From Candidatus Omnitrophota bacterium (lineage in GTDB: Bacteria; Omnitrophota; Gorgyraeia; Zapsychrales; JAKLDJ01), in NCBI GenBank assembly GCA_022703585.1, contig JAKLDJ010000001.1:374891-438890 (forward strand): a stretch of 64,000 nucleotides of DNA. The letters are read 5' to 3'. Positions 58,192 to 60,351 of this stretch are shown here, piece after piece (positions within the stretch are counted from its first letter, which is position 1; the number at the start of each line of letters is the position of its first letter). A program made the translations under genes and the position numbers. The notes under the pieces are model-generated. The model saw only the letters and a program-made list of their open reading frames with translations, was not told where the DNA came from and made no database searches.

Positions 58192-60351
58192 TTAGGCGTT
58201 AAATATTTCTTTTTTAAGAGGAATGCCGCGTGTGGCAAAATCGGGATAACAGGCGGGGACATATCCGGTCGGCTTGTAGGCGCCAAGGATTTTCCCGTCG
58301 GCGTCAACGCCCTTTTGTTCAAAGAGAAAAACATCCTTCATGTTAAGTTGAGAATCACTCAAGACCCCCAGGACTTCGGTAATGGCAGTAATTTTACGGG
58401 AGCCGTCGGAGAAACGCGCGATATGGACGATGATATCGACAGCGGTGCCCATCATCTCGTACATGGCCCTAACCGGGAGCTCAACCCCGCTTAACAGCAT
58501 CATGGAGGTCATCCTGATCAAGGCGTCCCGGGTCGAATTGGCATGCAAGGTAGTCAGAGAACCGTCGTGGCCGGTATTCATCGCCTGGAGCATGTCCAGG
58601 ATTTCCGGCCCGCGGCATTCTCCGATAATAATCCTGTCGGGGCGCATGCGCAGGCTGTTGATAAAAAGATCCCGGATGGCAATCTGCCCTTTGCCTTCAA
58701 CGTTAGGCGGGCGCGATTCCAGCCGGCCCCAGTGCCGCTGTTTCAAACGAAGCTCGGCGGCATCTTCAATAGTAATAATCCGTTCACCCTCGGGAATAAA
58801 AGAAGAGATGACATTTAAAAGGGTGGTTTTACCCGCACCGGTCCCGCCGGAGACAATGATATTTTTCCTCCCTAAGACGCAGGCGTTAAGAAAATCCGCC
58901 ATGGCCTGGGACAAGCTTCCGAAACGGGTTAATAAATCTTCGACCGTGTATCGTTCAGCTGAAAATTTGCGGATGGTCAGCATCGGGCCGTTTAAAGACA
59001 ACGGCGGAATAATGGCGTTAATGCGCGAACCGTCGGGAAGGCGGGCATCAACCATCGGAACCGATTCATCGATACGCCTCCCTAAGGGCGCGATAATTCT
59101 TTCAATAATAGCGCGCACCTGCTCATCGGAGATAAAACTTTTATTGGTCAGAATCATCTTACCGTGCCGTTCGATATACACTTCATTGCGATTGTTGACC
59201 ATAATGTCGCTGATATCCCCGTCGGCTAAAAGATCTTCCAGGGGGCCTAAACCTAAAGCCCCGTCGGCAATTTCCTTAACCAGCCGGGTGCGTTCTTCAT
59301 GGGAAGAAATAACCGCCCCGGCTAACTCGGTTAATAAATCACCGATAATCTTTTCGGTCGCGGACCGCAAGGACTTGGCCTTTTTAGGGTCGCTAAGGTC
59401 TGTGGCGGTCACATGCTGCAAATCCAGTTTTTCAACAAGTCTCTCATGAATCTTTTTCTTGATCTTGTTGAGTTCATCGCTTTCGTCGGGGGGAGCAAAT
59501 ATTTCGCGGGATTGGGTAATCTGTTCGGTGATGCCGAATTTCTCCCAGAATTCACCCGGCTTGGAAAGGTCGCCTACGGTACGCATCTTCGCTAATTCGG
59601 TGCCGAGGACAAAGATCTCTTCTTTAGAAAGGTCCTCCGCCATTTTCTTAAAGGCCTCGGTCACCTTGGCTTTAGGGCTGTCGATAACACAAGGGATCCC
59701 CCGGTTTAAGGCCATCCCTACCGCCCTGCCGTCGGAAGGGACATGGGAGAATATTTCACAGGGCAAAGCGGAACGTACTTCCTGCCAGGCAACACCACCC
59801 CGGCTTTCGGAGCGGTTCAAAATAAGCTTGACCATTTTTAAAGGAAAGTGCAGGCTCTGTAAGACATCCAGGCTCCAGCGGGTTTGATAAACAGCCAGGA
59901 TGTCCGGGGTGGCCACCAGTAAAATAAGATTGCAATGGTCGAAGATGGTAATGAGGGTCTCACTAAAGGCCTTGCCGACGTCCACAATAACATAGTCGTA
60001 GCAGGCAGCGGCGCTTTTTAAGAAAGGTTTTATATTGTCAGGGGTAATGTGCCCGACTTGCCGGGTGTGAGTAACTCCGGGTAAGAAATCCAGGCCCGAG
60101 GCATGGGTAATGACATGTTTTTTAAAAATATCCGACGGATTACCGCGTTCCAGCTCGGGAAAAATGTCGACGACCGCGTAGCGCGGAGCGACATTGAGCA
60201 TGCGGGCCATATCCTGGCCGGCCTGAAAATCCAAGTCCACCAAAAGCGTTTTGTTGCCAGCCAGGGCCAGAGAGACGGAGAGATTGACCGAAATAAATGT
60301 CTTTCCGACGCCGCCTTTATTACTGAAAACAGCTATAGTCTTCGATTTCAT
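58192..60351 (-). CDS. Fusion protein: N-terminal CpaE/TadZ-type ParA/MinD ATPase joined to C-terminal CpaF/TadA secretion ATPase (719 aa).
   Basis: N-terminus MKSKTIAVFSNKGGVGKTFISVNLSVSLALAGNKTLLVDLDFQ is the deviant Walker A of the MinD/ParA type. The C-terminal half has the GspE/TadA core ...GPLEDLLADGDISDIMVNN...IIVSGGTGAGKTTLLNVISSFIPEGERIITIEDAAEL...IIIGECRGPEILDMLQAMNTGHDGSLTTLHANS. Confidence 0.8.
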   Translation of the reverse strand: MKSKTIAVFSNKGGVGKTFISVNLSVSLALAGNKTLLVDLDFQAGQDMARMLNVAPRYAVVDIFPELERGNPSDIFKKHVITHASGLDFLPGVTHTRQVGHITPDNIKPFLKSAAACYDYVIVDVGKAFSETLITIFDHCNLILLVATPDILAVYQTRWSLDVLQSLHFPLKMVKLILNRSESRGGVAWQEVRSALPCEIFSHVPSDGRAVGMALNRGIPCVIDSPKAKVTEAFKKMAEDLSKEEIFVLGTELAKMRTVGDLSKPGEFWEKFGITEQITQSREIFAPPDESDELNKIKKKIHERLVEKLDLQHVTATDLSDPKKAKSLRSATEKIIGDLLTELAGAVISSHEERTRLVKEIADGALGLGPLEDLLADGDISDIMVNNRNEVYIERHGKMILTNKSFISDEQVRAIIERIIAPLGRRIDESVPMVDARLPDGSRINAIIPPLSLNGPMLTIRKFSAERYTVEDLLTRFGSLSQAMADFLNACVLGRKNIIVSGGTGAGKTTLLNVISSFIPEGERIITIEDAAELRLKQRHWGRLESRPPNVEGKGQIAIRDLFINSLRMRPDRIIIGECRGPEILDMLQAMNTGHDGSLTTLHANSTRDALIRMTSMMLLSGVELPVRAMYEMMGTAVDIIVHIARFSDGSRKITAITEVLGVLSDSQLNMKDVFLFEQKGVDADGKILGAYKPTGYVPACYPDFATRGIPLKKEIFNA

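Follow-up and report, generated by a model that had tools for sequence, protein, structure and literature searches.

TadZ/CpaE proteins localise the tight-adherence (Tad) pilus machinery, acting as a polar hub, and are needed for assembly of the secretin. In canonical systems, including Aggregatibacter actinomycetemcomitans TadZ, Caulobacter crescentus CpaE and the protein of structure 3FKQ, this ParA/MinD-fold ATPase is encoded directly before tadA. The place of TadZ/CpaE in the Tad machine and its link to the motor are still debated, and a cryo-electron tomography (cryo-ET) preprint on C. vibrioides, which places CpaF in the inner cytoplasmic ring, only speculates that CpaE forms the outer ring (PMC12637624). 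The closest described system is the 'atypical TadZA fusion ATPase' of tad locus 1 of Bdellovibrio bacteriovorus, reported in a preprint of July 2026 (bioRxiv 10.64898/2026.07.08.737194). This protein lacks the atypical receiver domain (ARD), has a flexible linker, accumulates as a full-length protein, binds the polarity hub RomR via TadZ and the linker, and moves dynamically between the poles; CRISPR interference (CRISPRi) repression targeting tadZA-tadB blocks prey invasion (bioRxiv 10.64898/2026.07.08.737194). A TadZA fusion has also been noted in Peredibacter and 'all predatory Bdellovibrionota' (PMC13147790). Omnitrophota TadB/C group with those of Bdellovibrionales (PMC10066038), and that study and a second one on Omnitrophota discuss Tad clusters without mention of the fusion. 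Here we analysed a stretch of 64,000 nucleotides from a Candidatus Omnitrophota bacterium (contig JAKLDJ010000001.1; hereafter the window), in which positions 58192-60351 encode a natural fusion of both cytoplasmic Tad pilus ATPases.

The open reading frame (ORF) lies on the minus strand, which an earlier note on this DNA had left unstated, as do all other window features described below. It encodes 719 aa plus a stop codon (ATG at 60351-60349, stop at 58194-58192) and begins one nucleotide past the stop codon of the secretin gene upstream, with a stop-free frame of only four codons 5' of the ATG. We read it, with a probability of about 0.85, as the motor that drives a Tad (type IVc) pilus from the cytoplasm, a TadA/CpaF that has acquired the ATPase half of TadZ/CpaE as its N-terminal domain, an arrangement termed TadZA. 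The earlier note had proposed from the sequence that a TadZ/CpaE ParA-like ATPase and a complete TadA/CpaF ATPase share one polypeptide, and matches to Pfam, NCBIfam and solved CpaF structures bear this out. Its premise that the two are separate proteins in characterised Tad systems is out of date, because the B. bacteriovorus TadZA has been characterised (bioRxiv 10.64898/2026.07.08.737194). The window protein does not represent a system of a new kind but is an Omnitrophota member of a class known from Bdellovibrionota, and databases already contain fused proteins of this class, unremarked, with labels like 'Flp pilus assembly complex ATPase component TadA'.

Like the Bdellovibrio TadZA, the window protein combines an ARD-less ParA/MinD-type TadZ domain, a flexible linker and TadA/CpaF in one chain. 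Homology to Bdellovibrionota TadZA extends over the full length, with 39-41% identity over about 690-715 residues; a Bdellovibrionales protein (P0140, MCB0390198.1) shares 41% identity over aa 4-718 of the window protein, and P0298, from the Bdellovibrio-type locus L001, shares 40% over aa 35-717. The order RcpC-secretin-fusion is the same in L001 and in the window, and the hosts in both phyla belong to predatory or parasitic lineages. However, TadB follows the fusion in L001, whereas tadB and tadC of the window are located about 12 kb downstream, beyond a pilin array and large unknown genes, and are followed by a giant ORF. The two forms also differ in host phylum and in their N-domains, which are only about 22-28% identical, and their linkers are unrelated, with FWEKFGI in the Omnitrophota subclade and an LxxLxxLKKPS-like sequence in Bdellovibrionota.

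The TadA/CpaF part (aa 289-719; 58195-59487) comprises an N-terminal helical bundle, the N2 domain and a GspE-type core, and matches Pfam T2SSE at aa 367-646 (6e-58) and an NCBIfam TadA-family model at aa 327-658 (314.6 bits). Solved C. crescentus CpaF (9e24/8rkd) matches aa 289-705 with an E value of about 1e-113 (2e-113), and CpaF scores 383 bits among solved structures, compared with 132 for archaeal GspE, 127 for FlaI, 107 for VirB11 and 35 for PilT. In addition, Foldseek aligned the modelled C-terminal part to CpaF 8rjf with an E value of 4e-29 and 46% identity over about 430 columns. The complete GspE-type core that the earlier note placed downstream of the ParA-like domain (Walker A, Asp box, His box) was located in full within the 719-aa ORF. 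Conservation was assessed in an alignment of the window protein with 19 Omnitrophota orthologues (A1) and in one of 20 diverse fused proteins (A3). The Walker A motif GGTGAGKT (aa 502-509; 58825-58848) has G502, G503, G507, K508 and T509 invariant in A3, and its nucleotide-binding residues are invariant in A1 as well. Three further boxes carry residues invariant in both alignments: the Asp box ERIITIEDAAEL (aa 523-534, including E529/D530; 58750-58785) with E529, A532, E533 and L534, the Walker B motif with catalytic Glu, RMRPDRIIIGE (aa 568-578, D572 to E578; 58618-58650), with R568-R573, G577 and E578, and the His box TGHDGSLTTLHAN (aa 593-605; 58537-58575) with H595, H603 and N605. All catalytic boxes of C. 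crescentus CpaF (8RKD/8RJF/9E24) are therefore present, and the window protein differs from it at the N-terminus, which is short or disordered in CpaF and is here extended by roughly 290 residues, the TadZ domain plus linker. By analogy with CpaF, the protein is predicted to form an ATP-hydrolysing hexamer driving pilus extension and retraction.

The N-terminal part is a TadZ-type ParA/MinD-fold ATPase domain without an N-terminal receiver (aa 1-245; 59617-60351), as delineated by Pfam, phmmer and AlphaFold2 (AF2)/Foldseek, with a Pfam AAA_31/ParA/CbiA match at aa 4-240 (about 1e-14). Direct reading locates the deviant Walker A motif K12-G-G-V-G-K17-T18 at 60298-60318, with K12 as signature lysine and K17 as P-loop lysine; the earlier note was right about the KGGVGKT of MinD/ParA, but its position is residues 12-18 rather than about 9-16. 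Residues K12, G13, G14, G16, K17, T18, D39, D41, D124, G126, N179 and R180 are invariant across the 20 Omnitrophota sequences of A1, and this invariance despite identities down to 65% indicates, at the level of sequence, selection on nucleotide binding.

When aa 1-250 were compared by phmmer with the 60 unfused ORFs that lie directly upstream of tadA in the best 80 loci of a GTDB genome scan, scores ranged from 54 to 152 bits, for example 152 for Firmicutes UBA3943, 150 for Gudongella, 125 for Gaiellaceae and 77 for Pseudomonas. Against the Protein Data Bank (PDB), the same query scored about 54 bits for MinD and 38 for FleN, and its best match was 3ea0 (65.6 bits; 143.8 bits with a family profile), a 245-aa 'ParA family ATPase' from Chlorobium tepidum whose P-loop, KGGDGGS, is of the TadZ style. 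The AF2 model of the N-domain has predicted local distance difference test (pLDDT) values mostly of 70-94 and superimposes on 3ea0 with a TM-score of 0.88 and a root-mean-square deviation of 2.4 Å; the Foldseek matches of the N-terminal part also include MinD and FlhG. 3EA0, the best match in both structure and sequence, is likewise a stand-alone ATPase domain without an ARD, although it is not fused and differs in its P-loop. Because the TadZ scores of 54-152 bits compare with about 54 for MinD, and because of the fold match to 3ea0, the N-domain is best identified as the ATPase half of TadZ/CpaE and not as MinD. Compared with canonical TadZ/CpaE, it lacks the ARD, is covalently joined to TadA and has a two-lysine P-loop, KGGVGKT, in place of KGGxGx[ST].

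A true MinD was considered and rejected, since the NCBIfam MinD models over aa 4-248 remain far below their cutoffs (minD_bact 79.2 bits against 212.9; minD_arch 81.7 against 201.75) and the unfused TadZ ORFs of tad loci score higher. With MinD and FlhG (FleN), the N-domain shares the fold and a deviant Walker A with signature lysine, which makes an ATP-sandwich dimer mechanism plausible. However, it falls far under the family cutoffs, has no MinC/MinE or flagellar context and carries no clear C-terminal membrane-targeting helix. It is accordingly very unlikely that a MinD/FlhG/ParA-type ATPase was recruited independently, which would make 'CpaE-CpaF fusion' a misnomer. The MinD models, at about 80 bits, do score above the actinobacterial CpaE-homologue model of NCBIfam (47.6 bits), the two-lysine Walker A is MinD-like rather than TadZ-typical, and Eubacterium rectale TadZ (3fkq) is matched weakly; but those 80 bits are far under cutoffs of 202-213, the unfused ORFs immediately upstream of tadA reach higher scores than MinD, and the Omnitrophota N-domains nest among the TadZ domains of tad loci in a neighbour-joining (NJ) tree built without bootstrap. 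Moreover, the domain sits exactly where tadZ would be expected, after rcpA and before the TadA part, with which it is collinear in one ORF, and no second TadZ-like gene is present within the window.

The fusion itself appears in independent data. An identical 719-aa product was found on 17 contigs from independent assemblies of different samples and pipelines (JGI, Logan and ENA/NCBI; for example JGI 3300009771, Logan SRR5007146 and ENA ERZ761563). A search of 5.8 billion protein clusters, from which 120 homologues were listed, yielded more than 115 orthologues with 64-83% identity and the same uninterrupted architecture, whose sources name Candidatus Omnitrophota. Query coverage was 99-100% in 118 of the 120, which are 714-735 aa long and contain both domain sets; the two exceptions are a triple-core protein (P0015) and an N-truncated one (P0020). 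The junction that the earlier note guessed at about 59.5 kb falls in the linker (aa ~246-292; nt 59476-59616), where the window ORF contains no stop codon or frame change, and A1 runs continuously through it, the linker being variable in sequence and always in frame. Separate adjacent tadZ and tadA genes are the common arrangement (60 of the 80 sampled loci), and one wrong base, causing a frameshift or the loss of a stop codon, could in principle join the two. However, the identical protein on the 17 contigs and the orthologues of the same architecture exclude the sequencing error that the earlier note had raised as a concern, and single ORFs of this kind also occur in 67 of the 150 top-ranked representatives of clusters formed at 50% identity. 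In addition, the N-domain lacks the ARD that unfused TadZ has, so the ORF is not simply a canonical pair read through, and the chance of an artefact is negligible.

The linker (aa 246-292; 59476-59616) is roughly 45 aa long, variable in A1 and predicted to be disordered, with pLDDT below 50 at aa 258-292. It contains one conserved motif, KPGEFWEKFGI (aa 264-274; 59530-59562; consensus KPGxFWEKFGI), which AF2 models as a short low-confidence helix at 265-271. Within the window's subclade (A1), F268, W269, K271 and G273 of this motif do not vary. FWEKFGI is present in locus L002 and absent from L003 and the Bdellovibrio fusions. Considered as a membrane-targeting helix, the motif has a hydrophobic moment of about 0.5, which is unexceptional; the membrane-targeting sequence (MTS) of E. 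coli MinD was no higher when calculated over the same number of residues. The disordered linker with its single Met (M256) might suggest that the ORF yields two proteins, through internal initiation near M256 or through proteolysis of the linker, in a functionally canonical system. Such an outcome is highly improbable, because M256 is not conserved in A1, which has no conserved internal start, the Bdellovibrio homologue accumulates as the full-length fusion, and the fusion has persisted across deep divergence, which a bicistronic-like arrangement would not require.

The ATPase domain match begins at residue 4, and the N-terminal ARD is absent. From this start, together with the four stop-free codons upstream, it follows that the N-terminal part comprises no more of TadZ than its ATPase half; the ATPase domain of E. 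rectale TadZ (3fkq), by comparison, begins near residue 142. The number of stop-free codons before the ATPase domain is at most 47 in 11 of 12 fused ORFs and at least 126 in 54 of 55 unfused tadZ ORFs, and fusion is thus almost perfectly associated with ARD loss (11/12 fused versus 1/55 unfused). The earlier note suggested that the fusion hard-wires localisation to the motor; since the N-terminal part is the ATPase half of TadZ, this is something we infer, and the positional cue probably comes from a partner protein.

To describe the distribution of the fusion, HMMER was run on 1.84 billion representatives clustered at 50% identity (E<=1e-30), which returned 6,638 relatives. Among the best 150 representatives, 67 carry a ParA-like domain N-terminal to the CpaF core in one chain, and named carriers include Bdellovibrionales, Bdellovibrionota, Bacteriovoracia and a protein annotated as Atribacterota. 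A Bdellovibrionales-seeded search added more than 115 further full-length fused proteins. The genome scan covered one genome per GTDB species, used alignment A3, and retained the best 80 loci from at least 600 pattern matches; at the ORF level, 11 of these are fused, 60 have a separate tadZ directly upstream of tadA, and nine have no TadZ-like neighbour. Near-universal fusion, as tblastn coverage of query residues 2-718 would suggest, was rejected because 60 of the 80 loci consist of adjacent separate ORFs, and coverage alone therefore cannot be read as fusion. Fused ORFs from the scan come from Bdellovibrio sp. HCB288 (a complete genome, L022), Pseudobdellovibrionaceae, Elusimicrobiales, WOR-3 and an Eremiobacterota metagenome-assembled genome. 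Two of these are unusual in form. The Eremiobacterota ORF (L041, 4068-7913) is atypically long, with a stop-free frame of 1282 codons and a weak ParA-like match from about residue 310, and may retain an N-terminal extension. The WOR-3 ORF (L051, 1942-4467) has a linker of about 125 residues with a MinD-MTS-like KKGFGFLGFGKK motif.

The trees conflict on whether fusion took place once or repeatedly. By NJ of the CpaF cores (100 bootstraps), all 13 fused proteins fall in one clade together with forms that have no TadZ and the unfused L047, with a support of 20-26%, and every other unfused system falls outside it. In the N-domain NJ tree, the Omnitrophota domains group with TadZ of the unfused Firmicutes type (33-34% identity) and are separated from the fused domains of the Bdellovibrio type. 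The forms without TadZ that cluster, with weak support, with the fused forms in the CpaF-core tree are CpaF homologues of Myxococcota, Spirochaetaceae, Acidithiobacillus, Thauera and Chromatiales (L037, L048, L049, L053, L055, L057, L060 and L061), in which the N-terminal extension, of about 130-170 aa, is of another kind and no TadZ-like ORF lies upstream. Ranking among the closest relatives of the CpaF half are also single polypeptides of 1156-1605 aa with three (P0125: two) tandem complete CpaF/T2SSE cores (P0015, at L085 1527-5003; P0121; P0122; P0125), which look like a covalent CpaF 'trimer'. The locus of P0015 is Tad-like, with two VWA proteins, two T2SSF proteins and TadE.

In the mechanism that we propose, the C-terminal part would form a CpaF-type hexamer that docks beneath the TadB/TadC platform and drives the Flp-type pilins to polymerise through the RcpA secretin, and probably also to depolymerise, by analogy with Caulobacter CpaF. 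Each hexamer would carry six TadZ ATPase domains, tethered covalently on the flexible linkers of roughly 45 residues. Every nucleotide-binding residue of the dimerising MinD/ParA ATPases is kept in these domains (K12, K17, T18, D39/D41, D124 and N179). Most likely, they pair as ATP-dependent sandwich dimers, placed around the motor ring or below it, where they would serve as a built-in scaffold or positioning module, the role of the separate TadZ elsewhere. As there is no receiver-like ARD, another protein probably conveys the positional cue, a part that RomR plays in Bdellovibrio. The fusion would fix a 1:1 stoichiometry and obligatory co-localisation of scaffold and motor, and it fits the speculated CpaE outer ring around the CpaF ring of Caulobacter (PMC12637624).

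Several points weigh against reading the ORF as a TadZA motor of this kind. The full-length AF2 model, built from a 20-sequence alignment and used solely for the fold match of the N-domain, is weak (mean pLDDT 63.9, with aa 522-604 of the CpaF core below 50) and says nothing on inter-domain packing. E. rectale TadZ 3fkq, the only structurally solved protein named TadZ, is a weak match found by profile only (43.9 bits). The hexamer, the ATPase activity of either domain, dimerisation of the N-domain and any partner are predictions where the Omnitrophota proteins are concerned, and no RomR-like partner was found within the window, where no search was aimed at RomR. Finally, the P-loop of the N-domain is degenerate in many other fused relatives (KSGSGTT, REGMGQS, NESIVHT), so ATP turnover by this domain is not universally required. 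These degenerate P-loops, together with the report that TadZ proteins bind ATP and have low ATPase activity (Denise et al. 2019, PMC6668835), would also suit an N-domain that is a nucleotide-independent structural spacer or adaptor, a pseudo-ATPase whose fusion merely tethers. We regard such a spacer as unlikely, as the nucleotide-binding set from K12 to R180 is invariant in the window protein and its 19 Omnitrophota orthologues.

Even with TadZA preferred as the reading of the ORF, one broader proposal can be advanced only tentatively: fusion and ARD loss may define a distinct Tad sub-lineage in which TadZ has become a stoichiometric motor ring, with six ParA-like domains and three ATP-gated dimers per CpaF hexamer. 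If so, this sub-lineage would be common, by descent or transfer, to Omnitrophota, Bdellovibrionota, Elusimicrobiota, WOR-3 and related uncultured groups, several of which are predatory, parasitic or ultra-small. TadZ would then no longer be a free polar-landmark adaptor, the fusion would provide 'Rosetta-stone' evidence for a direct 1:1 TadZ–TadA contact that is unplaced in canonical Tad cryo-ET maps, and clade-specific linker motifs such as FWEKFGI could be docking sites for lineage-specific positional partners.

Independently of that proposal, a conserved natural fusion argues for physical contact and equal stoichiometry of both ATPases, and shows the receiver-like ARD to be dispensable with the ATPase domain tethered. 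TadZA is more than a peculiarity of Bdellovibrio: a large Omnitrophota set has it as the standard form, and several other phyla contain it too. In the literature examined, neither this standing in Omnitrophota nor the spread to further phyla nor the link to ARD loss has been described. They offer a comparative framework for the work on B. bacteriovorus TadZA and bear on the attachment machinery of Omnitrophota, which are thought to be predators or parasites and have Tad clusters beside giant genes.

The genes around the fusion form a tad locus and encode RcpC, the RcpA secretin, TadB, TadC and Flp-type pilins. Read down the coordinates, the gene order begins with a PpiC/SurA-like protein, RcpC, the RcpA secretin, the fusion, a DUF192 protein, a 978-aa protein and the pilin array, and continues with 476-aa and 1083-aa TadE/G-like proteins, a 134-aa Cys-rich pilin-like protein, TadB, TadC and the giant ORF. 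RcpC/CpaB (62048-62896; Pfam RcpC 8.5e-22) is encoded upstream in the same operon. Immediately upstream of the fusion is the RcpA/CpaC secretin with a C-terminal TonB_C domain (60353-62014; Pfam Secretin 2.7e-40, T2SS-T3SS_pil_N), and immediately downstream is the DUF192 protein (57838-58182; 1.7e-16). The TonB_C domain (aa 473-550, 5.8e-17) makes this an unusual secretin fusion, and the same domains are annotated on this gene in L082-L084, three of the contigs that carry the identical fusion protein. The pilin array (51180-53729) consists of at least seven small tandem Flp or class-III-signal pilin-like genes with G/xxxEY-type leaders read from the translations; only the gene at 53300-53494 exceeds a Pfam cutoff (Class_IIIsignal, 26.6 bits), and a 58-aa Flp_Fap gene called in L082 corresponds to about 53553-53729 of the window. 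The platform proteins TadB (44740-45597; Pfam T2SSF 6.4e-18) and TadC (43722-44720; T2SSF 1.3e-13) follow, and no prepilin peptidase is encoded within the window.

Several other genes of the locus have unusual features. The 978-aa protein between the DUF192 gene and the pilin array (54438-57374) has no Pfam match; its N-terminus looks HTH-like by eye, a long low-complexity stretch rich in Pro, Glu and Lys follows, and about 480 aa make up the C-terminal region. It is also encoded in L082-L084. The 1083-aa TadG-like and 134-aa pilin-like proteins (45643-49298) are both strikingly rich in Cys and in Cys-Pro/Asn motifs and may be disulfide-rich tip or minor pilins. Directly downstream of TadC begins the giant ORF (1-42597), with at least 14,199 stop-free codons, which runs off the low end of the window; giant ORFs beside secretion and pilus genes have been reported for Omnitrophota (PMC10066038), and this one is of the same type. 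Beyond the high end of the window, in the region 1-5151 of L082, L083 and L084, a 1710-aa Response_reg and multi-PAS hybrid and a 380-aa Response_reg-HisKA-HATPase kinase precede the Tad operon and are possible regulators of the locus.

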